Positions 2,749 through 54,528 of a DNA stretch of 64,000 bases are shown piece after piece. A model generated the notes under the pieces. That model was not told the origin of the DNA and did not search any database. It worked only from the letters and a program-made list of their open reading frames with translations. The position numbers and the translations under genes were made by a program. Origin of the DNA: a virus (Duplodnaviria > Heunggongvirae > Uroviricota > Caudoviricetes); the IMG/VR virus record IMGVR_UViG_3300025913_000018; one strand, given 5' to 3'. Within the stretch, counting starts at the first letter, position 1; every line of letters starts with the position of its first letter.

Positions 2749-2778
2749 GTAACGGACGGGAGGGAGGTTTCTACACTG
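2749..2778 (-). promoter_or_regulatory. conserved 30-bp promoter-like motif (mRNA sense GAGTGTAR-N11-TCGTTCGTTAC), instance a
   Basis: Plus strand gtaacggacgg-N11-ctacactg, ending 6-8 nt before the ATG of 2278..2742. Confidence 0.6.
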
Positions 2779-2800
2779 TCTCCGGAAGTTCCAGAAACAG

Positions 2801-3538
2801 CTAGAATTTCCCCTGTCTTTCGTCCTCTTCCTTCATCTTTCGCTGGAGAGCCGCGATCCGTCGAAAGCGCTCCACCCCGAGATCTCGGAGGTCTTCGAGG
2901 CTCTTGTATTTCGGAGGCGGGGAAGTGAGCCACGCGTCGAGGGACTCGACATCGCGGTCTTCCCCCACGTACACGAAGAGCGGGTTCAGAGGCGCCAGTT
3001 CGGAGACGAGCGCGCGGTTGTGGGTGACGATGTAGGCGGCCTGGAGAAGCTCGGGCTTCTTCTTCATGAAGGTCGCGATCTCCCGACCCATGCACGCCGC
3101 CCACCCATCGCTGAGACCGATGTCAGGTTCGTCCCAGAAGATCGCGTGAGGCTTCTCGCGCTTCTTCGAGGTACTGATCGCCCCGAGGACCGTGTTCGCC
3201 GGGTTCGCCCCGGTCGATTCTTGATCCTCACCCCCGTAGACCATGACCATGATCGGGTTGTAGGAGACGTTTCGGCGACCCTCCATGCTAATGTGGATCA
3301 ATTCGACGTCGAGTCGACGGTAGCCGATCGTGATGATCCTCCGAAGGAAGCTCTTCCCTCCGGCGTTCTCTCCGACGATCACGACGAGAGGCGGAACCTT
3401 CCCCCTCGGCGCCGTGTACTGGAGAGTGACCGGAGGGTACTCCTGGTCGGACTCCGCGCAGAAGTAGGTCAACCCCTGGCAGAAGTTGAGCAACTGAACG
3501 GAAGAGGGGCCCTTCGGTTTCAGTTCCTTGCCGCTCAT
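2801..3538 (-). CDS. AAA/ABC-type ATPase (Walker A VVIVGENAGGKSF, Walker B IFWDEPDIGLS)
   Basis: P-loop GxxxxGKS near the N-terminus, hhhhDEP Walker B; resembles AAA_21/AAA_15 ABC-like ATPases. Confidence 0.7.
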   Translation of the reverse strand: MSGKELKPKGPSSVQLLNFCQGLTYFCAESDQEYPPVTLQYTAPRGKVPPLVVIVGENAGGKSFLRRIITIGYRRLDVELIHISMEGRRNVSYNPIMVMVYGGEDQESTGANPANTVLGAISTSKKREKPHAIFWDEPDIGLSDGWAACMGREIATFMKKKPELLQAAYIVTHNRALVSELAPLNPLFVYVGEDRDVESLDAWLTSPPPKYKSLEDLRDLGVERFRRIAALQRKMKEEDERQGKF

Positions 3539-3831
3539 CGTCGAACCCTGTTCAGTCTCTTGATCGGTTCCTGGACGAGCGTCTTGTGGGCGAGTCCGAC
3601 CTGAGAATGCCCACCGTAGTCGCTGGCGGACACGAGGTACGAAGACCCTTCCTTCGGGAGGTCGTCCTCACCCGGAACGGAGTTGACGTACACGTAGAAG
3701 GCTGGGCCTCCTGCCTTCGTTCGTACCTGGAGCCCCGTTCCCTTCTTAATGGGAGGACCCTCGATCGAGGCGACCCAGGTACTGGTCACCTTCGCTTGGG
3801 AACGAAGGGAACGTCTTTCTTGATCTTCCAT
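3535..3831 (-). CDS. hypothetical protein
   Basis: Start chosen at MEDQERR (ATG 3829-3831), preceded by AGCGTAAGGAAGAA SD. Confidence 0.4.
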   Translation of the reverse strand: MEDQERRSLRSQAKVTSTWVASIEGPPIKKGTGLQVRTKAGGPAFYVYVNSVPGEDDLPKEGSSYLVSASDYGGHSQVGLAHKTLVQEPIKRLNRVRR

Positions 3832-3968
3832 TTCTTCCTTACGCTGGCCCATCCAAGAAGCTCTTCGATCAAGAAATAGAGGAGCCACAGGCTCACTCCG
3901 ACGACAACCTGGACCGCGACTCGAAACGATTCTTTCATGAACCTACGGTCGTTCGGACGACAGGTTCG

Positions 3969-4364
3969 TTACTTCTTTTCGAGGAGCTTGCAGTCGATGA
4001 TCTGGGACCCTTCCTGGAGGGTCTCTACGAGAACTCGGTTCCCCTCGAACAGAACCTCATCCCCGGGACGAAGTCCGATCCCCACCGAGGGACTCGTCTC
4101 GCAGAGACTCCCGTCGGTGAGGTACACGTTCGAGTAGTCCGAGAACGAGTGGACGCAGACCACCTTCCCCGACCTTCGCGTTCGCTCGGGGTGAGAGAAC
4201 GTTGCCCAACTCGTGTGGATGTGGGGTTCGTTCGGAGAAAACCCTCTCTTCGAGAGGAGCTTCCATCCGGGCGGGACCCAGATCTCGGGTTGGTTGTCGC
4301 GAGTGAACGAGGCGTCGTTCCGGATAGTCCACTCAATCTTCGGAGGCACTTCCCTCACCTTCAT
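3969..4364 (-). CDS. hypothetical protein
   Basis: ORF track, 131 aa. Confidence 0.45.
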   Translation of the reverse strand: MKVREVPPKIEWTIRNDASFTRDNQPEIWVPPGWKLLSKRGFSPNEPHIHTSWATFSHPERTRRSGKVVCVHSFSDYSNVYLTDGSLCETSPSVGIGLRPGDEVLFEGNRVLVETLQEGSQIIDCKLLEKK

Positions 4365-4725
4365 CCTTCAGGGACGAGTAGCGGATGTAGGTGTTGGTCG
4401 CGGGGTCCATGAACGAGCTGAGGCCCCGCGCTTCCTCTTCCGTGATGATCCGGTACACTGCCGCCTGGATGATGTGGACGTGACCGAGGTTACAGGTCGC
4501 CGTCTTCTCCTCGGAGATCAGGAGCGTCTTCAGGACGTCGTCGGTAAGGATCCCCTGACTGTCACAGTTCGTGTCGTCCACGACGTTCGTGAAGGCCGGC
4601 CGAGCCCCGCAGTTCGGACAAAGCGATCGCTTCTCTTCCTCGCCTCCGAAGTAGTAGGGGTCGTCCCAGTTCCCGTGGAGGTGTCCGTTCTCACAGAACA
4701 CCTGAGCGTAGCCTTCCCAAGACAT
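4333..4725 (-). CDS. zinc-finger-like protein (C..H, CPNCG, C..H)
   Basis: Trimmed to MSWEGYAQVFCENGHLHG... with ATG 4723-4725 and GGGAGTAAGG SD 6 nt upstream. Confidence 0.5.
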   Translation of the reverse strand: MSWEGYAQVFCENGHLHGNWDDPYYFGGEEEKRSLCPNCGARPAFTNVVDDTNCDSQGILTDDVLKTLLISEEKTATCNLGHVHIIQAAVYRIITEEEARGLSSFMDPATNTYIRYSSLKDEGEGSASED

Positions 4726-4733
4726 AGGAGACC

Positions 4734-5021
4734 TTACTCCCGAGCGGAGGATCGGTAGGGAGAGACCGGGCGAACAACTTCTTCGATTCGGTCTCCTGAG
4801 TTGTACACCCCGAGACGATCTTTGAATACGGACATTTTGCCTTTCGAGATCACAAAGATCCGAACGGCTCTGTACTGAAGCTCGCGAATCGGCATGGGAG
4901 TGATCCCAGGCTCGGGATCGAGGATGCTGGTCTTCATCGACCCGTCCGCGAACACGTAGATGAAGGTGATTCGATTCTTCCGATCTACGATCATGACCCC
5001 ACCTTCTCGAACTACGATCAT
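4734..5021 (-). CDS. hypothetical protein
   Basis: MIVVREGGVMIVDRKN...; ATGA overlap with the upstream stop. The N-terminus is encoded by a tandem ~24-nt imperfect repeat. Confidence 0.4.
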   Translation of the reverse strand: MIVVREGGVMIVDRKNRITFIYVFADGSMKTSILDPEPGITPMPIRELQYRAVRIFVISKGKMSVFKDRLGVYNSGDRIEEVVRPVSPYRSSARE

Positions 5022-6237: not shown

Positions 6238-6765
6238 CTAGGCCTCTTCGATCTTCCCCGTGGGACGAAGGGGCGCGACGACTGCCTTACGCTTCGCCAT
6301 GAACTTGTTGAACGCGTCGTTCTCGGCCGTAGCGAAGGCCTCGGCCTCCACTACGATCTTCGAGAGCCGTTTGCGAAGCGCCTCGCATTGAGGGAGCGAG
6401 AGGAAGACACCCACCCGGAACGAGGGGAGCGTGTAGAAGCCCTTCCCCGCAACCCACTCCGGCTCTTTCTGGTCGCTTTGGGAGAGGATGTAGAGGTAGT
6501 CGCTGACGTCCTTCGCGGGGACGTGGATGGTGAGTCCGTCGATCGGTTCGAGTACGTAGATCTTCCGACGGGAAGAAGCCATCCCCCCGAGATCCAGATG
6601 GCCGTCGGTAGTCGGAGTCCGATCGGGCTCGTGGAACTCCACCCGATGCTTTTCGGTCGCGTCCTTCCTCCACAGCTCCACCAGGTTGTCCGCGATCGAG
6701 TCCTCGCACAAGGTTCGAGGCGGGCTGAGATCGGCGAAGCCCGGGAACAGGTACATCCAGGTCAT
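6238..6765 (-). CDS. hypothetical protein
   Basis: Trimmed to MTWMYLFPGF... (ATG 6763-6765), overlapping the upstream stop as ATGA. Confidence 0.45.
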   Translation of the reverse strand: MTWMYLFPGFADLSPPRTLCEDSIADNLVELWRKDATEKHRVEFHEPDRTPTTDGHLDLGGMASSRRKIYVLEPIDGLTIHVPAKDVSDYLYILSQSDQKEPEWVAGKGFYTLPSFRVGVFLSLPQCEALRKRLSKIVVEAEAFATAENDAFNKFMAKRKAVVAPLRPTGKIEEA

Positions 6766-7559
6766 GCCGGCCTCCGAACGAGAGCGGGGCGGACTTGGAG
6801 GAGGTAGAGGATGTCGTCGTGGATCGCCCACTCGATGTCCAGAACCTCGAAAGACGGGAACGCGTCGCGGCACTTCTCCGTCAGCTCGACGAGCGCGTCC
6901 AGCTCGTCAGTTCCGAGAAGGAGCTTCGAGTGAGTCTCCACCTCGACCTTCAGAGTCCCGATCACGGGGCTCGGCTGGAACATGACGGTCTGGTGACCGA
7001 GACGCGCTGGAGGGTCTACCGTCTCCCCCGTGAGCCGGTACTGGTCCGGGTCGACGATCCCCTGAACGATCGCCTCCCCGAGTCCTCGAACCGCCTCGAC
7101 GACATACTCGTCGGCACCCGTTGCGGGGTTCCGAGTGAAGAGGACCCCCGAGAGTTCGGCCGGGATGAAGGTCTGGATGCAGACGGCCATTTCCGGAGCC
7201 CCCGACACCCCTAGGCGCCTTCGGTACTCCTCCGCCCGCGGCGAGTAGGCCGAAGCCTCGACGCCCCGAATAGCCTCCTCTAGGAACTTCTTCGGGACGT
7301 TCAGGCTGGTGGAGTGGATCCCGGCGAAGGAAGCCTCCACCCCGTCCTCTTTCGGAGCCGAAGAGCGAACCGCGTACGGACCCTGAAGAAGCCCCTCGAC
7401 GAGGGTTCCGATCTCGTCCGGAAGGTCTGCCACCTCCGAGACCGAGAGGGCGAGCCCGTCCGGAACCGGAAGCCCGGCACGAAGGGCGATCGCGAGGGCC
7501 GCCGTCTTCCCGCCGTAGAGGCGAGAGTCGATCGCGTCCGCGAGCGAGGTGAGGGTCAT
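6762..7559 (-). CDS. PEP synthase / pyruvate-phosphate-dikinase N-terminal (PPDK_N, ATP-grasp-like) nucleotide-binding domain protein
   Basis: YGGKTAALAIALRAGLPVPDGLALS and SSAPKEDGVEASFAGIHSTSLNV resemble the GGKAANL...GxPVPxGF and SSA..ED...SFAGQ..T motifs of PEP synthase / rifampin phosphotransferase N-domains. ATGA-coupled to the upstream gene. Confidence 0.65.
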   Translation of the reverse strand: MTLTSLADAIDSRLYGGKTAALAIALRAGLPVPDGLALSVSEVADLPDEIGTLVEGLLQGPYAVRSSAPKEDGVEASFAGIHSTSLNVPKKFLEEAIRGVEASAYSPRAEEYRRRLGVSGAPEMAVCIQTFIPAELSGVLFTRNPATGADEYVVEAVRGLGEAIVQGIVDPDQYRLTGETVDPPARLGHQTVMFQPSPVIGTLKVEVETHSKLLLGTDELDALVELTEKCRDAFPSFEVLDIEWAIHDDILYLLQVRPALVRRPA

Positions 7560-8968
7560 TCGTCGTCTCCCGTGTCCTGGTACGGGGAGGGGTGGCTGAT
7601 GTAGCCGCGATCCGAGTCGAGGCGGAGCTTCATCCCCCTCGGGTAGCGCTTCACCGCGTCCTTCACGCGGAAGATCGGGATCCGCATCTCACGGGCGATG
7701 ATCGAGAGGTGGGAAAGCTCCCCGCCGTTCTCGGTGATGATTCCGCGCGCCTTCTCGATCGCTGCGTTGTTCTCGGGCGTGTTGCTGAGGTCCTTCAGGA
7801 CGAAGATGCAGCCGGGGGATTCCCCGACGTACCCCTCGCACTCCGGAGCCGACGCCAAAACGGTGCACTCGAAATTCCCGTATTTCGCCTGGACCTCGCC
7901 CATCTTCGCGAGAGCCGCTTCCATGACAGGGTTCCGAGAGAAGGAAGATCCTTCTTCGAAGGAGATCCCCGCCCCGAGCAACCAGTCGGTGTGGTAGGGG
8001 TCGTCCATCTGCATCTTCATCCCCGAGACCGAGACTTCCTTCCATTCCGGGGCGAGATGGCGAAGGGAGTGGGAACGACGAAGGGCCCAGTTCTCGAAGG
8101 GCGCGAGGGGGACCTGGAACGTTCGACCGTCCGACGTGACGAGATCGAAGAGGTTCCCATTGGCCTGCTTCAGGACGTCCTCTCGGATCTGAACGAGCTT
8201 CGCCTGGTAGGCGATCTCCCGCTTCATGTCCTCCTCTTCTTGGAACTCGGCTTCGCACTCGGCTTCCTCGCGAGCCTCACGCTCCCCGCGGTAGTCGCGG
8301 TGGTCTTCTTCCTCGTCCGGCGACCCCATCGCTCCGATCGCGCTGATCTTGTGGCCGGCGGCGACGTACTCGCGAATGGCGTCTTCGGGGAGGAGAAGCT
8401 CGTCGCGCCAGAAGGGGGCTTCTCCGACCGGCTCGAACAGGAAGAAGCGGCAGCGTCTGTGGTCGTAGTCGCTCTTCCGGTCGCGGGGGATCTCCACGCA
8501 GATCACGCCCTCGTGAGCGTAGTGGCGGGCCCGGTTCTTCCACCATTTACGGATCAGCGCCATGTGCTCGGGCGCCGTCCCGATATCCTCGTTGGGGTCG
8601 GGCAGGTCGAGCGAAGCGGAGATCGCGTCCTCGGGGCTGAAGGCCACGACCTCGGCGTACGGGCGATACCACGCGTTCTTGATCTTCACGCGACCGGCGT
8701 AGATGAACGCCAGGGTCTTCTGGTACTTCGCCGAAGAACGGTCCTTCGCGACTCGGATCCCCTTCGACGAATCGCCGGTGAACTTCTTCAGACCCTTCAG
8801 GACGTCGATCGCGACGCCCTGAAGCTCCCCCGGATTCCCTCCCGAGAGGGACGTCTGGATCATCCGCCACGCCTTCCCCGGAGCGTCGGAGAGGAGCAAG
8901 CCCCGAGCGTGCTCGGTGATGAAGGAACCCTCGATCAGGAAGTGGGCGACGCGTTCCGTACTGGTCAT
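7556..8968 (-). CDS. protein with C-terminal PEP-utilising (phospho-histidine swivel) domain; N-terminal ~380 aa unknown
   Basis: C-terminus ARGIITENGGELSHLSIIAREMRIPIF resembles the PEP-utilizers mobile domain GG.TSHAAI.ARE.GIP with its catalytic His. An acidic EEED-rich linker sits mid-protein. Confidence 0.65.
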   Translation of the reverse strand: MTSTERVAHFLIEGSFITEHARGLLLSDAPGKAWRMIQTSLSGGNPGELQGVAIDVLKGLKKFTGDSSKGIRVAKDRSSAKYQKTLAFIYAGRVKIKNAWYRPYAEVVAFSPEDAISASLDLPDPNEDIGTAPEHMALIRKWWKNRARHYAHEGVICVEIPRDRKSDYDHRRCRFFLFEPVGEAPFWRDELLLPEDAIREYVAAGHKISAIGAMGSPDEEEDHRDYRGEREAREEAECEAEFQEEEDMKREIAYQAKLVQIREDVLKQANGNLFDLVTSDGRTFQVPLAPFENWALRRSHSLRHLAPEWKEVSVSGMKMQMDDPYHTDWLLGAGISFEEGSSFSRNPVMEAALAKMGEVQAKYGNFECTVLASAPECEGYVGESPGCIFVLKDLSNTPENNAAIEKARGIITENGGELSHLSIIAREMRIPIFRVKDAVKRYPRGMKLRLDSDRGYISHPSPYQDTGDDE

Positions 8969-9162
8969 GACGCCTCCGAGATCTTCTTCCAGGTACCCTG
9001 GTAGACCTGGCCGGCCGCCGCTTTCGCGGTCATGTGGTGGACGAAGCGCTTCGCCTTCTTCGGGTCGAGGGTGTACCCGCCTTCGAGGCCTCGCCCGGCG
9101 ATCGCCTTCGAGAGGTTCACGAGGTAGGCCCCCTGGGACATCACGACGTAGTGAGCCTTCAT
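8965..9162 (-). CDS. small hypothetical protein
   Basis: MKAHYVVMSQGAYLVNL...; GGAGGAA SD; ATGA overlap at both ends. Confidence 0.45.
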   Translation of the reverse strand: MKAHYVVMSQGAYLVNLSKAIAGRGLEGGYTLDPKKAKRFVHHMTAKAAAGQVYQGTWKKISEAS

Positions 9163-9665
9163 TTCGGTTCCTCCGGATTGGCGAGGTCTTTCATCCATCG
9201 CTGAGCGTCCGCCTTCTGGACGAAGACCAGCCAGGGGCGATCGTCGCGGTGTAGGGAAGGGACGCTCAGCGTAGTGCCCGTATCGAGCGCCCACCAGGCG
9301 TCGTGCTTCGTAGCGAGTCGACGAAGAGTGGTCGTCGGTTCGACCAACGACTGTCGGATCCGAGAGACATCCTGGAGGCGGTGCTTCATCGGACCGAGCT
9401 GGTCCTTCACGAAGTCGGTCGCCTGGACGAGGTACCGCGGATCTCCGAGGAACCAGAGGGCCTTCGCCTCGGAGTGACCGTGTTCGAGCTTCAAGATCTG
9501 AAGGTCAACGAGATGCTCTCGCATCCGACGAGTCGCTTCCCCGAGGCGTCCGTACTCGAACTCCGCCGACCCCATGTAATCGAACGTGAAGTGTCGGTTG
9601 ATCCCCTTCATGTCCTCACGGACTCGATCTCGACGGTTCACGCGCTGGACGAGGTACGGGGTCAC
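9159..9665 (-). CDS. hypothetical protein
   Basis: 168-aa ORF. Confidence 0.5.
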   Translation of the reverse strand: MTPYLVQRVNRRDRVREDMKGINRHFTFDYMGSAEFEYGRLGEATRRMREHLVDLQILKLEHGHSEAKALWFLGDPRYLVQATDFVKDQLGPMKHRLQDVSRIRQSLVEPTTTLRRLATKHDAWWALDTGTTLSVPSLHRDDRPWLVFVQKADAQRWMKDLANPEEPK

Positions 9666-9856
9666 TTTCGGTCTCCCTTGAGGCAGAAGACCAGGCGAAG
9701 TCGACCGGTCACCGGGACTCCGTTCGTGGCGTCCCCCTGCCGGATCTTACGCGCGACCATGGCGATCGCCCGCCCTCGCTTCCGACCGTACGAAACCGTG
9801 TCGAAAGGAACGGGGTCCCCTTCGCTCTCGAATCGAATCCAGAAAGCACGTCTCAT
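9662..9856 (-). CDS. small hypothetical protein (64 aa)
   Basis: MRRAFWIRFESEGDPVPF...; ATG 6 nt downstream of promoter motif instance b. Confidence 0.45.
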   Translation of the reverse strand: MRRAFWIRFESEGDPVPFDTVSYGRKRGRAIAMVARKIRQGDATNGVPVTGRLRLVFCLKGDRK

Positions 9857-9862: not shown

Positions 9863-9892
9863 GTAACGAACGACCTCCGCCCCTTTACACTC
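9863..9892 (-). promoter_or_regulatory. conserved 30-bp promoter-like motif, instance b
   Basis: Plus strand gtaacgaacga-N11-ttacactc. Confidence 0.6.
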
Positions 9893-43889: not shown

Positions 43890-43896
43890 CCCTCCC

Positions 43897-45178: not shown

Positions 45179-45759
45179 GGCTTCTGCTTACCCTCGGGGA
45201 TGAGATGGGTCAGGGCACTCATGACCTGCTCCATCGCCAGGCGCGTCGAAAAATCGAAGTCCGGGTCTTCGTAGTGGCTCGCGAACTTCACCCAGGAGTG
45301 AAGGTTACTCGTGGCCACGAAGACGGGAGGATGACTGCTCCCCTTCTGGACGACGGGCCACGACATCAGGAATCGAGTGTCTCGCGCGAAGGCCCACTCG
45401 ACCTCAGTCGGAAACCGGGCGAAGAGGAGGCTCAGAGTGGTCCACCTCAAGGCCCAGTCGTGATCCTTCGTGAGGCAGAGATCTCCCAGCTCATCCGTCG
45501 TGAGCTGGTTTCGGTTCATGTACGTGAGAACGGCCGAGAGCCCGAGCGCCTTTCGAACTTCCCCTGCGATGTCGTCGGTCGACCCTCCGCACCATCGGTA
45601 GCGAAGTCTCTCCGCCGTCTCGTCCAGAGTGATCGGGAAGCCTCCCACGGCGACGACGTGAACTCCTTCATGACGACGAGCGAACTCTTCCGCTCGTTCG
45701 AGAACGGTCCCCTTCGGAAGCGCTCCTACGGCGCGGTGTAAGTCGAGGAAGGAGATCAT
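45175..45759 (-). CDS. hypothetical protein
   Basis: MISFLDLHRAVGALPKGTVLERAEE... Confidence 0.5.
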   Translation of the reverse strand: MISFLDLHRAVGALPKGTVLERAEEFARRHEGVHVVAVGGFPITLDETAERLRYRWCGGSTDDIAGEVRKALGLSAVLTYMNRNQLTTDELGDLCLTKDHDWALRWTTLSLLFARFPTEVEWAFARDTRFLMSWPVVQKGSSHPPVFVATSNLHSWVKFASHYEDPDFDFSTRLAMEQVMSALTHLIPEGKQKP

Positions 45760-46613: not shown

Positions 46614-47107
46614 CGGTCGAACCCTCTCCGAACGATCAGGTGGTTCCCCTTACTCTCTGGAGAGAAGGCGGTCCCCGGAAGCGTTGCCTCGACCGTGAAG
46701 GTCGAGAACAGCTCGTCTCGAAGCTTCTCCGGGATCAACAAGAGCACGTCCTCGATCTCGTTCGCGTAGATCCACGCGAGAAGGAACGGAAGAAGCTCGT
46801 AGGGCGGATTGCTGATTACGCAGACCTTGGACTTGGACTGGACCTCCTCGCCCGGATAGACCCCGCTGTAAGCGATCCGCGTCCCTCTGAAATCCATCTC
46901 CCTCAAAAGGAGATACGGGTGGGTCAGCTTACACAACCCGGGCTCGATCTCCCAGGCAGTGACGATCGGGCCCCGATCGAGGATCAGCTTCGTGAGGACC
47001 CCGGTCCCCGCTCCGATCTCGAATACGTGGCGCCCCTTCAAGTCCAATCGGGAGAGGACGCGTTCGTGGTACGAGGTATCCCGGAGCATATGCTGTTCGA
47101 GGTTCAC
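46610..47107 (-). CDS. small SAM-dependent methyltransferase with NPPY motif (N6-adenine / N4-cytosine DNA MTase-like or HemK-like)
   Basis: Motif I VFEIGAGTGVLT, then motif IV VISNPPYE. Confidence 0.65.
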   Translation of the reverse strand: MNLEQHMLRDTSYHERVLSRLDLKGRHVFEIGAGTGVLTKLILDRGPIVTAWEIEPGLCKLTHPYLLLREMDFRGTRIAYSGVYPGEEVQSKSKVCVISNPPYELLPFLLAWIYANEIEDVLLLIPEKLRDELFSTFTVEATLPGTAFSPESKGNHLIVRRGFDR

Positions 47108-47409
47108 AGTCTCCGCTTACCCTTTATTCCGGGGAGGAAACCGAAGTCCACGGAGTCCTGCCTCAACCGTTCGAACCCAGCGAGTAGCTCGGGCTTCTCA
47201 AGCCCCATCGCTCGAAGTTCCTCGACCCGACGACCGTGAGCGGCGTTGAAACGCTTCACGTACTTGATTCGAGCGATGTGGATCCCCTCGTAGTCACCGT
47301 CGCTGTCTCCGCAACGAAGCGTTCTCACCTTGTGAGCGTTGCACCAGGTAACCGGACAGTAGACAGGGTGGTCCTTCACCCAACCGTCCTCGTCGGTATC
47401 CAGATCCAT
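47104..47409 (-). CDS. hypothetical protein
   Basis: MDLDTDEDGWVKDHPVYCPVTWCNAHK... Confidence 0.45.
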   Translation of the reverse strand: MDLDTDEDGWVKDHPVYCPVTWCNAHKVRTLRCGDSDGDYEGIHIARIKYVKRFNAAHGRRVEELRAMGLEKPELLAGFERLRQDSVDFGFLPGIKGKRRL

Positions 47410-47423
47410 TTTGAGATCTGAGT

Positions 47424-48044
47424 TCACTTTCGGTTCTGTTCCACGAGGGCCTGAGAGAACCGGGGCTCCGCGAGTCCGGTTCCGTACGCCCACTTCAGCG
47501 ACGTCGAGATGGCGTCGTAGGGACCGGGAACCGATCGAACGCCGTAGGAGCCGACCTCGATCCCGCCCACGTACAGGTCGTTTCCGTTCTGAGTGATGAC
47601 GCGCTTCATAGAGGCGCCTTCCTCATGGAAGAACTCAGCCGCATCCGCAATGAGCTTCGAGAAGCCCTCCTGAGGATCCGGGTTCGGAACGAACAGCTCC
47701 ACCTTCATGAAGGTCTTCTGGTGAATGGCGGAACGAGGGTCGCCCCGGAAGCACGGGCTGACCCCGACGATCGGCGTGACGGGATCTATCGCCATGCGTC
47801 TCAACAGCCAGAGGAAGGACTGCTCGGCCGAACCCACCAGCTCCCCGAACGCCCGATCGCCGACGGAGATCTGGTAAGGGGTTGCCCCCGGTGGGAGAGT
47901 CTCGCGGACGATTTCCGCGGGGACCACCCAAGGCGCCTCGGCGTACGCGTAGCCCAGGCTCCGGTAGAACTCGACCGCCCGACCGATCCGAGACCAGTCG
48001 ATCGGGACGTTGTCAAGGAATTCGAGGGGTTCGGGTTCCGTCAC
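47424..48044 (-). CDS. class II aminoacyl-tRNA-synthetase-like catalytic core (AsnA/PoxA-like), truncated
   Basis: Motif-2-like SPCFRGDPRSAIHQKTFMKVELF. Only ~206 aa; no anticodon-binding domain. GTG start with AAGGAGG SD. Confidence 0.45.
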   Translation of the reverse strand: MTEPEPLEFLDNVPIDWSRIGRAVEFYRSLGYAYAEAPWVVPAEIVRETLPPGATPYQISVGDRAFGELVGSAEQSFLWLLRRMAIDPVTPIVGVSPCFRGDPRSAIHQKTFMKVELFVPNPDPQEGFSKLIADAAEFFHEEGASMKRVITQNGNDLYVGGIEVGSYGVRSVPGPYDAISTSLKWAYGTGLAEPRFSQALVEQNRK

Positions 48045-48267
48045 GGAAGACCTCCTTCGTCCGCTCGTTCATCTGCCTCAGATCATCCATCGAGACGCCG
48101 AGCTTCTCCGCGTACCCCTCGATCGCCCCGTAGAGGTCGGCCAGCTCGCAGAGTTCCATGATGAAGATGCCCTGCTCGTTCGAGTCCTCCAGCTCCTCAA
48201 GTTCCTCTCGAATCTTGGAGATCTCCCCGTAGACTCCCGGCGCGATTTCTCGTTTGTGGTACCCCAC
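48013..48267 (-). CDS. MazG-like nucleotide pyrophosphohydrolase domain protein (small)
   Basis: IREELEELEDSNEQGIFIMELCELADLYGAIEGYAEKLG resembles the MazG EExxE...D helix pair; GTG start after GGGCGTAAAGAGG. Confidence 0.45.
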   Translation of the reverse strand: MGYHKREIAPGVYGEISKIREELEELEDSNEQGIFIMELCELADLYGAIEGYAEKLGVSMDDLRQMNERTKEVFRDGTRTPRIP

Positions 48268-48308
48268 GTCCTCTTTACGCCCCTCGCCTCTCTCGGTAAG
48301 GTTCGAAC

Positions 48309-48542
48309 ATGAGCACCGCCAATTGGAAAGTCCCCTTCCGCCAGGTCTACACGAACTCGTTCCGCGAGTGGGTGAAGTGGAGCATCTGGTGTCACTTCGT
48401 GATCCGGGTCTTCCCGGGCGCGCGAGACCTGAAGTCCGACGCTCTTCAGGACTACTACCGTGAGAACCCGGCGGAGATGTACAACCAGTACCGCTACGTT
48501 TGGGGCCACGGCGAGGACACGCGTCCGGACGCCGTAGCCTGA
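48309..48542 (+). CDS. hypothetical Trp-rich protein (plus strand)
   Basis: GGTAAGG SD then ATG; strand switch. Confidence 0.5.
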   Translation: MSTANWKVPFRQVYTNSFREWVKWSIWCHFVIRVFPGARDLKSDALQDYYRENPAEMYNQYRYVWGHGEDTRPDAVA

Positions 48543-48550
48543 GTCTCCGG

Positions 48551-48831
48551 TGGGACCTAGGAAAGCGACGGTAGGGCCGGGGTCTACCCGCCATCTCGTG
48601 AAGGACCGTTACGGGGTCTTTCACGAACCTCATCCGCTTATGTTCTCCTCGGAACGCATCTCTCGGATCCGAAAACGCCTCCTGGTTCTCCTAGCAGACA
48701 ACGCCGAGGCTGTGGAGACGGCGGGTCGCGTGTACTACAACGAAACCCGGGATCAACTGGAATTCGAGGGCAACCCTCCCAGCGACAATCCTCCCGGCCT
48801 TACCCTTCTGTGGGAAAAGCCGCCCGCCTAA
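48551..48831 (+). CDS. hypothetical protein (plus strand)
   Basis: 93 aa, immediately after the previous gene. Confidence 0.45.
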
Positions 48832-50108
48832 GGCAGGTACGAGACCATCGCCCGGAACGCCCCTTCCAACCCTCCTCCGAAGAGAGAGTCGAGGGTGACG
48901 GGGTGTTGGTCTTTCCGTCGTCGAGGCGTCGGGAACTTCGGCTCGTTCGGAGCGATCAACACGAGCAAGTAGTGGAGGGACGTAGGCCTCACCGAGAAGC
49001 CGTCGTCGCGAAGACGATCGATGATCCTCGCGAGCGCGGAGATCGTCGCTCTCGTCGGATAGAAAGCGGATCGACCTTCGAGGGGTCTCTCGTATTTCGA
49101 GGTCGTCGCCTCCAGCACCGAGAGAGGGATCGGAGGTCGGACTCCAGGTCCCGCCTTAGCCCTGTTCATGAGGTAGTTTCGGTCGTTCGTCCAATCCTTC
49201 GTTCTTTGGTCGGCGGAGATCTTCTGACGCTTGCCCAGCTCCAACCTAGCGCGGTAGGAGTCGAGAGATCGATGCGTTTGTCGGAGATTGTCCGGAGAGG
49301 GACCCACCTCGAAAGTGCGACGGTATGGGTAGCCCTCCGGCGGTTTGTCTAGCCAGTGACGCGGATCTCCGAGCGCTAGCTCGTTCATGAACTCGATCTC
49401 GTCGTGGACGACGAACTTCGCGAATCCGTTCGTCAAGCTTCCGTCGGCGAGAGTCTCCACCGACTCGAACAGAAGTCGGATTCCCTCCTCAGTGTTAGAG
49501 CGGTCGATCGGCCAAGGGTGATCGATGTTACCTCCGCTGGCCCTCGCCTGACAGGTGGCGCAGACGTGGTCACCTACCTTCGGTTTCTTTTCCCAAGCGT
49601 CGGAGATCGCAAAGCGACACAGCGTCATCTTCCCGTCGTAGGAGGCGTGGTCTCGGGTAACCGTCGATCTCGTGCTGTGAGTGTTCGTTCCTCGCCTTCG
49701 GAACCAGAGCAAATTGGGTGGGGGGCGAACTGGTTGCTCTGGGTGAGCGATCTCCTCGGCGATTGCTTCGGGAGAGTCACCCACCGTCTCTCCGATGTCG
49801 ACCAAGTAGGCGAGACCCTCGGACTCGCCCCAGATCCACGATCCCACCTTCACTCCCGGATACAAAGTCCGGTGCCAGGCCGGTCCCTTGTACATGGGGA
49901 GCCTCGCCACGGACAGGACCGAGAGGAGCTTCGCCTCTTCGACTCCGAAGCGAACGCGGAGGCGGCGACCACGCTGAAGAGAATGGAGACCGACGAGAAG
50001 CGACTTCACGTCAGAAGCAATCGGAGTGGACGACTCTGGACGATCCGTCGGATGGGCGACCCTGAACCCCTGGATTCTCTGAGTGGTGGCTACTAGCTCA
50101 TTCGGCAA
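48828..50108 (-). CDS. hypothetical protein (426 aa)
   Basis: Long ORF, no recognisable motif; convergent with the plus-strand pair. Confidence 0.55.
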   Translation of the reverse strand: MPNELVATTQRIQGFRVAHPTDRPESSTPIASDVKSLLVGLHSLQRGRRLRVRFGVEEAKLLSVLSVARLPMYKGPAWHRTLYPGVKVGSWIWGESEGLAYLVDIGETVGDSPEAIAEEIAHPEQPVRPPPNLLWFRRRGTNTHSTRSTVTRDHASYDGKMTLCRFAISDAWEKKPKVGDHVCATCQARASGGNIDHPWPIDRSNTEEGIRLLFESVETLADGSLTNGFAKFVVHDEIEFMNELALGDPRHWLDKPPEGYPYRRTFEVGPSPDNLRQTHRSLDSYRARLELGKRQKISADQRTKDWTNDRNYLMNRAKAGPGVRPPIPLSVLEATTSKYERPLEGRSAFYPTRATISALARIIDRLRDDGFSVRPTSLHYLLVLIAPNEPKFPTPRRRKDQHPVTLDSLFGGGLEGAFRAMVSYLP

Positions 50109-50175
50109 GAGAAGATCCTAGAACTTTCTACGAGGTCTCTACCTTCACCCGAACGATCGGGCGAGGCGACGGCTC

Positions 50176-50601
50176 CTACACGTTGTACTTGCCGTCGCGG
50201 ACGTCCTTCACGAATTGGGCGACCTTCTGGCGAGCTTCTTTCACGCTCTCCAACTCGCGTAGAGCCGCCTTACGGATCGCCTCGATCAGAGCGGGGATCT
50301 GCTGAGCCGCCGCGATCCGATCAGCCCGAGAAGCACTCGTGACTGGCACTTCGTCGTTCTGTTGAGCCACGTAGAGACCCCACTCCCGTCCCTTCTTCTT
50401 GAAGGTCAGGATGGCCCCCGGTCGAAGGTCGACCTCGGCCCACACCCCGTACCGCATCTCTTCGATGACCTGTTCGGCTTGCCTCAGGGCCATGTTGAGA
50501 GCGTCGGTCTCCTCTTGAAGGAGGTCGCCGGTGACTTCTCCCGAGATCTCGGGCTTCGAGGTCTCGGGATCCTTGGGCTTCTGGCGTCGAACGACGGTCA
50601 T
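50176..50601 (-). CDS. hypothetical protein
   Basis: 141 aa. Confidence 0.55.
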   Translation of the reverse strand: MTVVRRQKPKDPETSKPEISGEVTGDLLQEETDALNMALRQAEQVIEEMRYGVWAEVDLRPGAILTFKKKGREWGLYVAQQNDEVPVTSASRADRIAAAQQIPALIEAIRKAALRELESVKEARQKVAQFVKDVRDGKYNV

Positions 50602-50741
50602 GTCAACCTCAGCATCTTCACGTTGTTACGCTGCGGGCTCAAGGATTGGCCTAAGAGACCCGAGGCGGGACTCGGACGACCGTAGACCCGGTCCCGATCG
50701 AAACGGCTCCTAGGGGCGCGTAGGAGGGGGGTAACACCTGT

Positions 50742-51113
50742 ATGGATCAAGACCAACCCCTCGTCCCCGTCGACCTCGATTCCCTCCCTCGACCGAGCGG
50801 TTACTCGGACTGGCCGATCGACCGAACGGTCCCCCCGATCGCGATCGGACAGAAGATCTACCTTCGGACGTCCTGTTCGATCGGTCACGGAGAGACCGAC
50901 GTCCGAGGAGGCCTGGCCACCGTGAAGAGGGTCTCGCTGGGAGGAAGCGCCGGAAAGCTTCAGCCCTTCATCGAAACGAAGGAAGTCCCTGGTCACGGGT
51001 ACAACTGGGCTTCTCTCGCGGAGCAACAGGAGGAACTGAAGAAGCGATTCGGAGACTCCGCCGCCCTTCCGGATCCTGACTACCGCCCCGAGTTCAATAC
51101 GGGACGACTCTAG
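50742..51113 (+). CDS. hypothetical protein (plus strand)
   Basis: GGAGGGGGG SD; divergent from 50176..50601. Confidence 0.5.
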   Translation: MDQDQPLVPVDLDSLPRPSGYSDWPIDRTVPPIAIGQKIYLRTSCSIGHGETDVRGGLATVKRVSLGGSAGKLQPFIETKEVPGHGYNWASLAEQQEELKKRFGDSAALPDPDYRPEFNTGRL

Positions 51114-51114
51114 C

Positions 51115-51387
51115 ATGAGGTCCGCTGACGGGGAAGAGTGCGAGAGGCTGGAGAAGCTCTTGCTTTCGAAAGAGCAGCTTCGTGTCGTCAACAACGAAGG
51201 GTACGAACGCGAAAAGGGAGAGCGAAGCCCTCGGTGGGACCTCGACCCTCCCCAACGCGAGAACTACGAGTCCCCGATCCGGTACATCCTCGCCCTTCGA
51301 GACTACGCGAATCGCGTCTTGGCGAGCGAGCCTAGACCTTCACCCGGAAGGTCTTCACGATCAGGTCGCGAACCGAAGCCGACCTGA
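51115..51387 (+). CDS. hypothetical protein (plus strand)
   Basis: Overlaps the previous stop as TAGCATG. Confidence 0.4.
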   Translation: MRSADGEECERLEKLLLSKEQLRVVNNEGYEREKGERSPRWDLDPPQRENYESPIRYILALRDYANRVLASEPRPSPGRSSRSGREPKPT

Positions 51388-51613
51388 ACTTCAGGTCGTC
51401 CATCGCACCTCGGTACGGGGCGAACCCTCGGACCCCACCCTCTTCGAGACCGGCGAGGAACCCCGCGTTGTGGCGGTACGCGCCCCAGCGAAGAAGAGCG
51501 TCCCCGAGGTTCCCCTTCTTCGCAGCGGCTTCCGCCTCATCGAGCGCCTTCTTTGCATCTTCGAAGGTGGCGCGGATGAGGGGGTTGGTCGGGGTCGTTG
51601 CTGTGGACGTCAT
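51332..51613 (-). CDS. hypothetical protein
   Basis: 93 aa. Confidence 0.45.
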   Translation of the reverse strand: MTSTATTPTNPLIRATFEDAKKALDEAEAAAKKGNLGDALLRWGAYRHNAGFLAGLEEGGVRGFAPYRGAMDDLKFRSASVRDLIVKTFRVKV

Positions 51614-52146
51614 TCCTCGCCTCCGTTCATGATCTGCAGACGACTCGGGTCGTTGGACTGCCCCGCGCGCGGCTCACGGGACTTCGATTCGGTGAGGGCC
51701 GGGTAGCGAACCGCCGTCAGCTTGTGCCAGGCCTCGTGAGCCGCACGCGCCTCGGCTCGACAATCCGTGAGGTCGTCCAGGTTCATAGCGACGCTCCTCA
51801 TGTAGACGAGGGTCGAGGCGACGCGCGACATCGAGTTCCCCGCGCTGACGGCGCGCGCGATGTCGAAGTGTTCGGTTCGATCGAAGCGAGGCGTCACCCA
51901 CGCCTTCGTCGGAGGTTCCTCCCAGACATTCCAGACCAGGACCCCCTGGACGAGTTTGTTCTCGGACGAGAGGATGAAGGAGAACCCCGAGGGTCCCACT
52001 CGAATGTCGTCGAGGATGATGTTCTTCGTCCCCACGATGTAGTGCTCGTGGATCTGAGCGAGGGCGCTCAGGACGCGATTCGACGGGAGGCTTCGGAACT
52101 CCCGGCTGGCGAAGATGATCGAGAGTTGCTGAGAATCGAAGCTCAT
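51610..52146 (-). CDS. hypothetical protein
   Basis: MSFDSQQLSIIFASREFRSLPSN... Confidence 0.5.
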   Translation of the reverse strand: MSFDSQQLSIIFASREFRSLPSNRVLSALAQIHEHYIVGTKNIILDDIRVGPSGFSFILSSENKLVQGVLVWNVWEEPPTKAWVTPRFDRTEHFDIARAVSAGNSMSRVASTLVYMRSVAMNLDDLTDCRAEARAAHEAWHKLTAVRYPALTESKSREPRAGQSNDPSRLQIMNGGEE

Positions 52147-52499
52147 GAGGAGATCTCCGCGGACGAGGTTGAGGTTGACGTTTCGTTCTTCGAGGGGGCG
52201 ACCACCGCCAGAGCGACGCTGATCAGCTCGTCGATGTCCTTCTGGGGGAAGCTCTTCGCGCTGACGTTCTTCTCGACGTAGCGCGGGCCGGACCCGAGAC
52301 ACTCCCCCGGAATCGAATGGACGTCCCTCCACTGGCCGCCGTCCCACCGTTCGATCCGGCCGTAGCTCTGATCGACGTAGGCGTTGAAGCGGAACTTCAT
52401 CCGGAACCGATGGTTCCCAGAAGCGAAGATCCGCTCCAGGAACCACGACTGCTCGCCGTTCCAGACGCGCTCGTACAGAACCTTCATCTTCTTCGTCAT
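52143..52499 (-). CDS. hypothetical protein
   Basis: MTKKMKVLYERVWNGEQSWFLERIF... Confidence 0.5.
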   Translation of the reverse strand: MTKKMKVLYERVWNGEQSWFLERIFASGNHRFRMKFRFNAYVDQSYGRIERWDGGQWRDVHSIPGECLGSGPRYVEKNVSAKSFPQKDIDELISVALAVVAPSKNETSTSTSSAEISS

Positions 52500-52750
52500 G
52501 CCGCCACCTTCTCCTCGTCGAGCGAAGCGAGTCCGATGTCGATCGCGGCCTGGCGATCCTTCCGCCACGCGAGTGTGATCGGGGACTCCGAGACCTCCGT
52601 CGTGGCGATCTGCCACGAGTAACCCGAAGGAGTCACGCCCGAAGCCTTCTCGGCCCAGTAGCGACGTACGAGAAGGAACTTCCCGACGGCCTCCCACGAC
52701 GTGTGGGCGGTTCCGCTCTCCGGGTTCGTGGTCCAGTTTCCAGTTTCCAT
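52496..52750 (-). CDS. hypothetical protein
   Basis: METGNWTTNPESGTAHTSWEAVGKF...; GGCGGAGGACGAGACG SD. Confidence 0.45.
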   Translation of the reverse strand: METGNWTTNPESGTAHTSWEAVGKFLLVRRYWAEKASGVTPSGYSWQIATTEVSESPITLAWRKDRQAAIDIGLASLDEEKVAA

Positions 52751-52769
52751 CGTCTCGTCCTCCGCCCCT

Positions 52770-52799
52770 GTAACGAACCAGTCGCGGTTCGTTACACTC
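52770..52799 (-). promoter_or_regulatory. conserved 30-bp motif, instance l - perfectly palindromic variant (GTAACGAACC-AGTCGC-GGTTCGTTAC)
   Basis: The 10-6-10 inverted repeat suggests a dimeric DNA-binding protein half-site GTAACGAAC. Confidence 0.55.
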
Positions 52800-53056
52800 A
52801 CTTTTTCTTGGCGTAGTAGACGATCGTGCAGCGATTCCCGCGGGTGACTGCGACGTACTGAGCGAAGATGTTCTTGCGCTGATCGCTCACGTCGTCGAAG
52901 GCGCCCGGATCCTTGAGGGCCTTCTCCACGAGTTTCAAGGCGCGAGTGACCGCGCCCTTGCTGTTCGGGTCAGCTACCTCGTGGTAGTTCCCTGAGCAGC
53001 CGCAGCAGCACTTGTTGGCCTTCCCGAAGTAGACCCTCTCGACCACCAGATTCATG
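52798..53056 (-). CDS. Cys-rich hypothetical protein
   Basis: MNLVVERVYFGKANKCCCGCSGNYHE... Confidence 0.45.
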
Positions 53057-53080
53057 GATTCCACTGTAGCCTCCGCTCAT

Positions 53081-53110
53081 GTAACGAACGAGGACGGAGC
53101 TTCTACACTC
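53081..53110 (-). promoter_or_regulatory. conserved 30-bp promoter-like motif, instance m
   Basis: Plus strand gtaacgaacga-N11-ctacactc. Confidence 0.6.
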
Positions 53111-53639
53111 ACGTGTCGATCAAGGCCCGGGTCGACCAGTAGACGATCGACTTCGCGAACTGCTCGGCCGTGAAATCCCCTTTCGTTCCGCCAGGAAGCT
53201 CCAGGAAGTTCCGGGCCATCGTCATCGGGTCCATCGGCTCTTCCTCCTCGGTCTCCCGAGCGTTGATCGAGACGATCTCCCAAACCGCGTCGGTCGTTGC
53301 CTCCGCGCCCAAGACGGTCTTCGAGTAGAGAACCACGAAGACGAACTTCGCTGGGGCCTTCCCGCCCTTCGCTCGGACGCTGAGGAACTTCGCTTCCCCT
53401 TCGCGACGCGCTTGGAAGATCGCCCGAAGCTCGGTCTCGGAGGTCACCGGTACCGTGCTGCTCCAGAATCCTTCCGGAGGAACAGGGACGAGGGCGACTC
53501 CCTTCTTGTAGCCCTCCTTCGCCCTGAAGAAGTTCGCCTCCACGAGAGCGACGAGATCCTCCCACGTCCCTTCGTAGTGGGAGTAGGGAGCCTCGGGCGT
53601 TTGCCGGAGGACGAACTTGTTCACGCCGATCTTGGTCAT
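53109..53639 (-). CDS. hypothetical protein
   Basis: MTKIGVNKFVLRQTPEAPYSHYEG... Confidence 0.5.
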   Translation of the reverse strand: MTKIGVNKFVLRQTPEAPYSHYEGTWEDLVALVEANFFRAKEGYKKGVALVPVPPEGFWSSTVPVTSETELRAIFQARREGEAKFLSVRAKGGKAPAKFVFVVLYSKTVLGAEATTDAVWEIVSINARETEEEEPMDPMTMARNFLELPGGTKGDFTAEQFAKSIVYWSTRALIDT

Positions 53640-54133
53640 GGGACTGTTACTCCGAAGGCGCCCAAGATCTTGGAGGTGAAGTCCTTCGGGAGGCTCGGGA
53701 AGCGTTCCGCGAAGGCCGAAACCTTGTCGAGAGGATCTCTCTCCAACCCCAGGTAATCGGCGACGGTCTCGCCCCCTTCCTTCCCCCAGAAGTAGACGGC
53801 GAGGCTCCAGTGAAGCTCGCAGACCCGATCCTCTTCCCATTGAGCGTCCTCGCCCGAGACGACTCTAGGAGCCGCGGAAGGGTTCGCCGGGTCCGGGCCG
53901 AGCCCGAACTCGGGAAGGTGCCTACGGGCTGGCGAGGAGAGGAGAACGTGGGCGACGTCGTGGAGGGAGAGGATGATATCGCTCTCCGAGGTTCGAAGCA
54001 GTCCCGAACCGTCCCAGGTGTATCGAGTGAAGGGGGAGACCTTCCACCGGATCCGATACGAGGGATCGATCGACCGAACGAGCCGAAGCGCGAGCTTTCG
54101 GACCCTTCGAACGTCGCTCGGGAGAATGATCAT
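53636..54133 (-). CDS. hypothetical protein
   Basis: 165 aa. Confidence 0.5.
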   Translation of the reverse strand: MIILPSDVRRVRKLALRLVRSIDPSYRIRWKVSPFTRYTWDGSGLLRTSESDIILSLHDVAHVLLSSPARRHLPEFGLGPDPANPSAAPRVVSGEDAQWEEDRVCELHWSLAVYFWGKEGGETVADYLGLERDPLDKVSAFAERFPSLPKDFTSKILGAFGVTVP

Positions 54134-54492
54134 GGGGCCGACCGGCGGAAGATCATCCCACCCGAACGGGCAAGAAGAAGGGTGAGGTGACCGACGGCAC
54201 GGCTGATCTCTTCGGGCGTCGTCGGAGCCCCCTGGAGCGAAGCCTCGGGCCCGCCGTCCGAGAATCGAAAGCGAGGCTCACCTTCGATGATGTCCACGCG
54301 GACGGAGACCGTCCCGAAGATGCGGCTCCCCGAGAGGTGCTGCTCGGCGGCCACGAAGATCTCCTCGGTCGGGCTTCCTTCCCGCCCTGCGGCGAGGGAG
54401 TGGAGACCGACGGCGATCGCCGCCGACCCACAGAAGCCATCGTCGTATCCGAGGCCAGGGACGTCGGAGCGAGGGAACAGGAGGGTGGTCAT
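54130..54492 (-). CDS. hypothetical protein
   Basis: MTTLLFPRSDVPGLGYDDGFCG...; motif n 6 nt upstream. Confidence 0.5.
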   Translation of the reverse strand: MTTLLFPRSDVPGLGYDDGFCGSAAIAVGLHSLAAGREGSPTEEIFVAAEQHLSGSRIFGTVSVRVDIIEGEPRFRFSDGGPEASLQGAPTTPEEISRAVGHLTLLLARSGGMIFRRSAP

Positions 54493-54498
54493 GCCTAC

Positions 54499-54528
54499 GT
54501 AACGAACGAGAGCGCGACCTCTACACTC
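54499..54528 (-). promoter_or_regulatory. conserved 30-bp promoter-like motif, instance n
   Basis: Plus strand gtaacgaacga-N11-ctacactc; overlaps the stop of the upstream gene. Confidence 0.6.

Follow-up and report, generated by a model that had tools for sequence, protein, structure and literature searches.

The Locus and Its Repeated Motif

The window analysed here is a 64,000-nucleotide stretch of DNA from an uncultivated phage of the class Caudoviricetes (IMG/VR record IMGVR_UViG_3300025913_000018), in which a 30-bp bipartite motif, GAGTGTAR-N11-TCGTTCGTTAC, recurs at the junctions of small genes and is probably a class-specific promoter of a giant soil phage. The window has a G+C content of 61%, and essentially all of its ~125 small genes are located on the minus strand, as judged by codon-position G+C together with the gene calls of an independent pipeline. 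A scan for the motif allowing up to three mismatches returns exactly 15 matches, from 2749–2778 to 54499–54528, i.e., precisely the copies, uniform in their internal spacing, that had been reported in an initial inspection of the DNA made without database searches (hereafter, the sequence-only reading). All 15 reside on the minus strand, compared with 0.01 matches expected by chance, and none of 100 shuffled sequences reaches this number.

The motif copies form a discrete set. In a weight matrix built from the 15 copies, the members score 26.8–45.3 bits, and the runner-up site on either strand scores 8.1 bits, within the range of shuffled sequences; this gap signifies that there is no tail of weak copies. 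The two blocks of the motif are an obligate pair: each of the 13 exact occurrences of the first block, GAGTGTAR, in the window (1.25 expected) is found inside a copy, and the second block outside the copies (up to two mismatches) gives 24 matches vs. ~21 expected. Across 30 aligned copies, the positions G3-T4-G5-T6-A7 and C25-G26-T27-T28-A29 are invariant and the central 11 nt are variable. This alignment, like the set of 47 unique copies considered below, extends beyond the 15 copies of the window.

Placement of the Copies at Gene Junctions

Each of the 15 copies is situated at a gene junction according to the pipeline gene calls, in agreement with the analysis of open reading frames (ORFs). 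The positional bias which the sequence-only reading had proposed to test is evident: all copies are co-oriented with the genes and sit at their junctions. The upstream gene usually stops at the 5′ edge of the motif. By the pipeline gene calls, this stop falls between 4 nt before the motif and motif position 8 in 10 of the 15 copies, and in an 11th copy it belongs to an uncalled ORF. The stop is a TGA composed of one upstream T and motif positions 1–2 (five copies) or a TAR at positions 6–8 (four copies, and a fifth with the uncalled ORF), or it precedes the motif by 3 nt (two copies). The start codon downstream follows at 6 nt in five window copies, at 10 nt in one, and at 16–20 nt in seven (16 nt; 17 nt, three copies; 19 nt, two copies; and 20 nt). 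The copies are as follows, with distances counted from the motif end; “leaderless class” denotes a prediction explained in the next section:

2749–2778, minus strand: CAGTGTAG-N11-CCGTCCGTTAC, 33.7 bits; ATG 2742 at 6 nt, gene 2278–2742, leaderless class; the pipeline start concurs (gene 9115–9579 of locus L006 begins 7 nt past the motif end).
9863–9892, minus strand: exact consensus; the upstream NUDIX gene ends with TAA at positions 6–8; ATG 9856 at 6 nt, opening a 64-aa ORF (9662–9856) uncalled by the pipeline.
16156–16185, minus strand: followed by AGGCGGAGG; a GTG at 19 nt begins a hydrophobic ORF of 27 aa; the first called gene after the motif begins at 16056, 99 nt on.
17017–17046, minus strand: three mismatches; TAR at positions 6–8 ends an upstream ORF uncalled by the pipeline; ATG 16999 at 17 nt with a Shine–Dalgarno-like AGGAA; gene 16763–16999, 78 aa.
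18305–18334, minus strand: upstream TAG at positions 6–8; ATG 18298 at 6 nt, gene 17945–18298, leaderless class; the pipeline-called start is 7 nt past the motif end.
19878–19907, minus strand: exact consensus; upstream TGA 3 nt before the motif; GTG 19860 at 17 nt after GAAGGA; gene 19570–19860.
22615–22644, minus strand: upstream TGA over positions 1–2; ATG 22604 at 10 nt with a predicted 3-nt leader; gene 22401–22604.
39364–39393, minus strand: AGGTGTAG variant; upstream TAG at positions 6–8; ATG 39346 at 17 nt after AGGAG; gene 38798–39346.
40104–40133, minus strand: upstream TAG at positions 6–8; a 113-nt leader, then GGAG and ATG 39990.
41607–41636, minus strand: within the last codons of a short upstream gene (64 aa), whose frame continues across the motif to a stop codon 4 nt past it; ATG 41586 at 20 nt after AAGGA; gene 41086–41586.
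42848–42877, minus strand: exact consensus, then AGAGGCGGAG; upstream stop 3 nt before the motif; ATG 42828 at 19 nt; gene 42532–42828.
43517–43546, minus strand: exact consensus; upstream TGA over positions 1–2; ATG 43510 at 6 nt, gene 42881–43510, leaderless class; the pipeline picked a longer start with a 41-nt overlap with the upstream gene.
52770–52799, minus strand: perfect 10-6-10 palindrome; upstream TGA over positions 1–2; AGGGGCGGAGG, then ATG 52750 at 19 nt; gene 52496–52750.
53081–53110, minus strand: exact consensus; TGA of the upstream DUF3228 gene over positions 1–2; GCGGAGG, then GTG 53064 at 16 nt; gene 52798–53064; both this copy and the gene are missing from the variant contig L049.
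54499–54528, minus strand: exact consensus; upstream TGA over positions 1–2; ATG 54492 at 6 nt, gene 54130–54492, leaderless class; the pipeline-called start is 7 nt past the motif end.

The sequence-only reading had placed each copy 2–20 nt before a start codon. This description fits 13 of the 15 copies; it fails for the copy at 16156, followed within this range by the 27-codon ORF only (the called gene is 99 nt away), and for the copy at 40104 with its 113-nt leader. The accompanying remark that several starts lack a Shine–Dalgarno sequence is true of the window starts at 6 nt.

Two side observations pertain to the latter exceptions. The 27-codon hydrophobic ORF (16053–16136, minus strand; VDFLERNGVFLWLAGWSAAIALLAVMS) possesses a perfect GGAGG ribosome-binding site directly after the copy at 16156; at its end it runs into the ATG of the following gene, and it was not called by the pipeline. 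The leader after the copy at 40104 harbors a weak tRNA-like fold (40005–40099, minus strand), in which the stem UGCCGG/CCGGUA resembles an acceptor stem and GGGUUCGACCCCC constitutes a canonical T-arm. ARAGORN reports no tRNA for this fold, and the Rfam tRNA-Sec model gives 13 bits, far under the threshold; it may represent a tRNA-like phage RNA, degenerate or unusual, that is transcribed from the motif promoter.

Predicted Transcription Start and Promoter Geometry

The distances between motif and start codon are bimodal in the set of 47 unique copies, too: exactly 6 nt in 11 copies, 9–10 nt in 3, and 15–23 nt in 29, with not a single start codon at 0–5, 7–8, or 11–14 nt past the motif. At position 36, i.e., the sixth nucleotide past the motif, 42 of the 47 copies have C or T (p = 2e-8) in a context otherwise rich in purines; at position 37, 45 copies have A or G. 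In all 11 copies of the 6-nt class, the start codon falls exactly at position 37 and lacks a Shine–Dalgarno sequence. By comparison, 32 of the 33 starts located 12 nt or more past the motif are preceded by a Shine–Dalgarno sequence, which is often the GGAG of a recurrent AGGCGGAG, with the GGAG beginning at position 37. We infer that one transcription start at position 37 would explain both distance classes, since the message would then open either with the start codon itself (leaderless) or with GGAG at the usual spacing of 5–10 nt.

If the start at position 37 is assumed, the motif would display the standard geometry of sigma-70-family promoters. In these, 16–18 bp separate the hexamers at about −35 and −10, and transcription begins 6–8 nt past the −10 hexamer. 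The blocks G3–A7 and C21–C30 can be rewritten as AGTGTA-N17-CGTTAC, with equal spacing in 47 of 47 copies, so AGTGTA would occupy −35 to −30 and CGTTAC, preceded by TCGTT, would occupy −12 to −7, separated by a 17-bp spacer. The −10 block CGTTAC does not conform to the TAnnnT of housekeeping promoters, which makes a housekeeping sigma factor an unlikely reader of the motif; in the alternative −10 register, TACnnn, T is found at the last position in only 2 of the 47 copies. Sigma-54 promoters are characterized by GG at −24 and GC at −12 (TGGCAC-N5-TTGC), and no such GG-N10-GC pattern exists in the conserved columns.

Promoters of the sigma-70 consensus type are scarce in the window. The sigma-70 consensus TTGACA-N16–18-TATAAT is matched once on the coding strand of the 64 kb vs. 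8.5 matches per strand in mononucleotide shuffles; in the 38000–56000 region, it is matched once on both strands taken together vs. 1.9 expected from dinucleotide-preserving shuffles. The regions of 22.6–39.3 kb and 54.5–64 kb contain neither the motif nor a recognisable promoter.

The sequence-only reading had described the motif as unlike sigma-70, sigma-54, and extracytoplasmic function (ECF) consensus promoters. This assessment is correct insofar as the motif lacks TAnnnT, the sigma-54 pattern, and the ECF “AAC”; with regard to ECF promoters it needs qualifying, as the spacing is that of the sigma-70 family and the CGT layout is ECF-like.

The position of the motif directly before starts and over upstream stops, its confinement to non-structural gene regions, and its preference for ATG also match the published description of the start-associated sequence (SAS; PMC3203893), and copies would be present in read-through transcripts. 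These features favor the idea that the motif works at the RNA level, where it would direct translation initiation or mRNA processing at the gene junctions in a way comparable to SAS or its extended form (ESAS). Still, SAS includes the ribosome-binding site and lies 3–7 nt from the start, whereas the motif is separate from GGAG and lies at 6 or 15–23 nt. What follows two of the copies is a long leader (99 and 113 nt) and not a start codon, and the divergent pair of copies described below, in which the upstream blocks adjoin, has an arrangement typical of promoters acting as DNA. No conserved RNA fold is shared among the copies (mean z −0.46; only the palindromic copy at 52770 folds strongly, z −4), and N11 is variable. 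Overall, an RNA-level signal appears quite improbable.

Symmetry of the Motif and the Regulator-Site Hypothesis

The palindrome at 52770–52799 is real, and the sequence-only reading had taken it, together with an “inverted partial copy” at 3944–3967, to suggest that GTAACGAAC is also a half-site for a dimeric DNA-binding regulator. The inverted copy turned out to be the plus-strand 9-mer GTTCGTTAC at 3964–3972: the match exists, but the coordinates were slightly off, and it is a lone match which does not qualify as a copy by the weight matrix. The half-site idea itself was not borne out, since orphan or inverted blocks do not occur above chance and only one window copy is palindromic; besides, in the variant contig L049, the gene following the 52770 palindrome is preceded by a non-palindromic hybrid promoter.

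Two more observations concern this symmetry. A copy in the upstream flank of the window (L008 1442–1471, minus strand; also in L115) is partly palindromic (GTAAGGAC...GTCCGTTAC) and reaches 16.8 bits on the opposite strand, representing a second, imperfect case of the symmetry seen at 52770. On the plus strand, the palindromic copy (52769–52796) would fold into a stem of 11 bp and a loop of 6 nt, with CTCACTTTTT next to it, resembling a terminator for antisense transcription.

A broader version of the regulator hypothesis views the copies as an array of sites bound by a phage DNA-binding protein (a stoperator-like repressor or an activator), which would mark control points and not a promoter. 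The stoperators of Cluster A mycobacteriophages, e.g., phage L5, are asymmetric, orientation-specific repressor sites blocking elongation. The motif is likewise asymmetric, short, intergenic, and co-oriented with transcription; one of its copies is a perfect palindrome, and the window encodes helix-turn-helix proteins (HTH_8 at 23257–23583; HTH-like at 16763–16999 and 31276–31533). On the other hand, neither a start codon exactly 6 nt on (11 of the 47 copies) nor the pyrimidine–purine step at positions 36–37 is expected of a regulator site, and there is no sigma-70-like promoter nearby for a regulator to act on. The blocks, 11 bp apart, are never single or inverted above chance, and neither an integrase nor a lysogeny module of the repressor type was seen. 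Collectively, these features render the regulator-site hypothesis improbable.

Distribution among Relatives and Possible Single-Gene Cassettes

The window lies on contig Ga0105240_10000233 (110,349 bp) of the JGI metagenome 3300009093. Protein P0001, encoded in the upstream flank (L008 255–515), has an identical copy on a contig of 472,929 bp, suggesting that the genome is probably very large, ~0.47 Mb. An exact-pattern scan detected the motif in IMGVR_UViG_3300009093_000035 (=Ga0105240_10000045, 248,579 bp), IMGVR_UViG_3300009093_000043 (97,639 bp), and Ga0207695_10000111 (249,771 bp); it is also present in several shorter soil and rhizosphere contigs with ~61% G+C. The loci fetched from the large motif-bearing contigs have no other nucleotide similarity to the window; other motif contigs are variants of the window or are 69–88% identical to it, with the motif retained. 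Three motif-bearing contigs from one sample (248.6, 97.6, and 110.3 kb; 456 kb in total) are alike in G+C and in the motif, and no overlap in sequence between the window and the loci fetched from them is seen; the three contigs may derive from a single phage genome of ~0.47 Mb.

The strand of the motif follows the direction of the genes. In the upstream flank of the window, the minus-strand copy at L008 1442–1471 stands before a minus-strand gene, next to plus-strand genes, and locus L001 features a back-to-back divergent pair, 4764–4793 (minus strand) and 4804–4833 (plus strand), 10 bp apart, with each copy facing its own gene. The copies in the 248-kb contig Ga0105240_10000045 are gathered in a few clusters, and those in the contig of the window lie mainly within ~55 kb. 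Such clustering fits a promoter of one temporal class with its factor encoded elsewhere.

A nucleotide search against cultured phages returned no match to the window, and the protein relatives are distant (Rctr197k, phiCbK-like phages, and Cluster C phages; 30–39% identity). The motif was not found in a 41-kb stretch of Rctr197k, where the repeated k-mers represent CRISPR arrays only. A scan of one genome per bacterial or archaeal species gave 12 scattered single matches, about or below the roughly estimated chance level, which counters the possibility that the motif is a host chromosomal repeat or belongs to a prophage. Most of the single metagenome matches in low-GC contigs are chance matches as well. 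A full-text literature search for the motif string revealed only unrelated primers.

Comparison with variant contigs bears on the suggestion that the repeats chiefly delimit mobile single-gene cassettes as boundaries of recombination, in the manner of T4-type promoter-early stem-loops, and are conserved by virtue of their spread by recombination and not of a shared function. Contig L049 (Ga0207639_10334311) lacks exactly one 311-bp unit, window positions 52770–53080, comprising one motif copy and the 88-aa gene 52798–53064; the junction falls in or just past the second block of the motif and yields a hybrid promoter. The gene order near the copies is altered in L051, too. Yet L049 is a single clean example, and the invariant positions are kept even in contigs without other nucleotide similarity, which implies selection on the sequence itself; in addition, recombination between repeated promoters is expected as a side effect and is compatible with promoter function. 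A primary role as recombination boundaries is hence very remote, although the repeated promoters do appear to act as recombination points for the gain and loss of single genes. A different deletion is seen in L022 (Ga0105238_10145974; 96–98% identical), where nearly the whole 120-aa gene after the copy at 54499 is lost (window 54144–54484) and the promoter with the first codons remains, fused to the next gene.

Overall Interpretation and the Putative Reader of the Motif

Taken together, the data make it likely that the motif serves an uncultivated giant soil phage as a class-specific promoter. According to this model, the motif would be the phage’s own promoter, in which AGTGTA and CGTTAC lie where a sigma-70-family holoenzyme contacts DNA. 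Transcripts would begin either with the start codon, at its A or G (leaderless messages), or at the first G of the GGAG Shine–Dalgarno sequence, the leaders of the latter spanning ~10–17 nt. The reader would probably not be the host housekeeping sigma factor but more likely a dedicated specificity factor, the candidates being an ECF-like phage sigma factor, a factor redirecting the host polymerase, or a phage polymerase.

Several points weigh against this interpretation. The transcription start was deduced from the sequence, and the purine richness past position 37 is partly due to the Shine–Dalgarno sequences themselves. The −35 block lacks the ECF “AAC”. Since there are no terminators before the copies, they would also be transcribed by read-through from upstream, which leaves some probability for a role at the RNA level. 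Furthermore, the ~170 kb examined, drawn from a genome of probably ~470 kb plus its relatives, yielded no gene for a sigma-70-family factor or an RNA polymerase.

The latter result was obtained in a number of searches. No Sigma70 (including Sigma70_r2 and Sigma70_r4) or RNA polymerase Pfam family was detected in 121 window ORFs at E ≤ 0.001, and none was present among the best 25 of 46 families (to E 0.095) when 66 mid-size window ORFs were rescanned at E ≤ 1. Pfam also revealed no sigma factor or polymerase in 97 ORFs from related loci, and the PHROG scans gave the same outcome. The precomputed annotations of ~26 kb of the flanking contig, including a 10-kb walk upstream, contain no sigma factor or polymerase either; an 816-aa protein encoded in the flank is Gly/Ser-rich, looks structural, and has no match in a PDB sequence search. 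Six-frame translations of the window and the loci are devoid of NADFDGD or T7-type catalytic motifs.

The sequence-only reading had envisaged a dedicated promoter giving leaderless or near-leaderless messages. The co-orientation of the copies, the switching of strand with the genes, the divergent pair, the bimodal distances, the pyrimidine–purine step, and the paucity of sigma-70 promoters converge, as indirect evidence, in support of such a promoter; the leaderless part depends on the predicted start. Its further suggestion that an RNA polymerase or sigma factor encoded by the element reads the motif gained no support from the searches above. It seems unlikely, though conceivable, that the reader is a protein without detectable similarity to known sigma factors and RNA polymerases, in a soil phage lineage of ~0.47 Mb where every message would start from AUG or from the GGAG of a ribosome-binding site and where the promoters would double as break-points in the exchange of single-gene cassettes.

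The consensus, the predicted start, and the two leader designs constitute a testable promoter model for an uncultivated lineage of very large soil phages, in which hardly any gene carries an annotation. With the help of the motif, transcription units and a temporal gene class can be delimited, fragments of the lineage can be spotted in metagenomes, and the search for the reader can be guided. If the predicted start is true, the phage would provide a clear natural case of a systematic mRNA design combining leaderless messages with 5′-terminal Shine–Dalgarno sequences; the leaderless design would also constrain the likely host.

Other Genes in the Window

The recognisable products encoded in the window are few and represent phage-like auxiliary functions, e.g., NUDIX, NADAR, ADP-ribosylglycohydrolase, an SPFH protein, and a metallophosphoesterase. 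A PurA-like adenylosuccinate synthetase (60976–62328, minus strand) matches a PHROG family labelled as a diaminopurine-pathway enzyme. It was considered and dismissed as a marker of a diaminopurine genome: its best solved relatives are cellular PurA, and there is no evidence of a modified base. Its conserved neighbour (62338–63315, minus strand; 325 aa) belongs to phrog_2971, a family of function not known.

At 6762–8968 (minus strand), two adjacent genes encode a split enzyme resembling pyruvate-phosphate dikinase: one specifies the PPDK_N ATP-binding domain (265 aa), the other a protein of 470 aa with a PEP-utilizers mobile domain; the 470-aa protein has relatives in Rctr197k and phiCbK-like Caulobacter phages. 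A 132-aa protein (20372–20770, minus strand) carries an RRM_1 RNA-recognition motif (MGKKLFVGGLPWG...RGFGFVTY) according to a precomputed Pfam match. This glycine-rich RNA-binding domain is of the eukaryote-like or cyanobacterial type and is uncommon in phages.

Comparison with Known Systems

Among bacterial promoters, the motif is reminiscent of those recognized by ECF sigma factors (group 4), e.g., the ECF41 promoter TGTCACA-N16-CGTC (PMC3426412). Like the latter, it is bipartite and contains TGT in the upstream block, and its form GTGTAR-N16-CGT fits a CGT at −10 with a spacer of 16 ± 1 bp: C25, G26, and T27 are invariant and lie 16 bp past GTGTAR. The predicted start 7 nt past the −10 block and the strong conservation within the regulon are shared as well. 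Unlike in ECF promoters, the −35 block is GAGTGTAR without “AAC” (position 9 is C in only 6 of the 30 aligned copies), the −10 block (TCGTTCGTTAC) is much longer, the copies number ~15 per 64 kb of a phage genome, and no cognate sigma or anti-sigma gene was found for the motif in the ~170 kb. ECF promoters are accompanied in their genome by a cognate sigma gene, with sigma-2 and sigma-4 domains, which is usually autoregulated.

Large phages are known to use class-specific promoters, e.g., the early, middle, and late promoters of T4, the gp28 and gp33-34 promoters of SPO1, and the T7-type promoters, the latter comprising one contiguous conserved block from ~−17 to +6. Similarly to these promoters, the motif is near-invariant, repeated before the operons of one genome region, and absent from bacterial genomes, and it would let the phage direct transcription to its own genes. 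Its sequence is unrelated to that of the T4, SPO1, T7, or phiKZ promoters. In contrast to the T7 type, it has a second block at −36 to −29, a variable N11, and no conservation from +2 to +6; searches of the window ORFs and translations for T7 motifs B and C and for the polymerase Pfam families found none. The early promoters of jumbo phages of the phiKZ/AR9 type feature an AT-rich block of ~10 nt near −10, and these phages possess split beta/beta′-like genes (PMC7598289). The motif differs from them in being GC-balanced and bipartite, and no NADFDGD-type motif is present in any frame of the window or the loci.

The SAS/ESAS elements of Cluster K mycobacteriophages are 13 bp long, contain the Shine–Dalgarno core AGGAG, and lie 3–7 bp before the start codon (PMC3203893). 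The motif resembles them in its asymmetry, single orientation, and location just before the starts of non-structural genes, sometimes over the upstream stop, as well as in its retention across diverged relatives and absence from host genomes. At the same time, it is longer (30 bp) and bipartite, lacks the Shine–Dalgarno core, and is placed 6 or 15–23 nt from the start, with a separate GGAG in the latter case.

An archaeal counterpart, the TATA/BRE element, was rejected: the second block has no archaeal equivalent, and the protein relatives are bacteriophages. Promoters of leaderless mRNAs are common in Actinobacteria and Deinococcus and are exemplified in phages by cI of lambda, transcribed from PRM. 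As in bacterial leaderless promoters, the start codon lies 6–7 nt past the −10 block, so transcription and translation would begin at one nucleotide; unlike in these promoters, the −10 block is not of the housekeeping type, and the leaderless design alternates with the GGAG-start design. Overall, the consensus is new and the kind of element is familiar: in this uncultivated lineage of giant phages, the motif is probably one more example of the class-specific promoters of phages.

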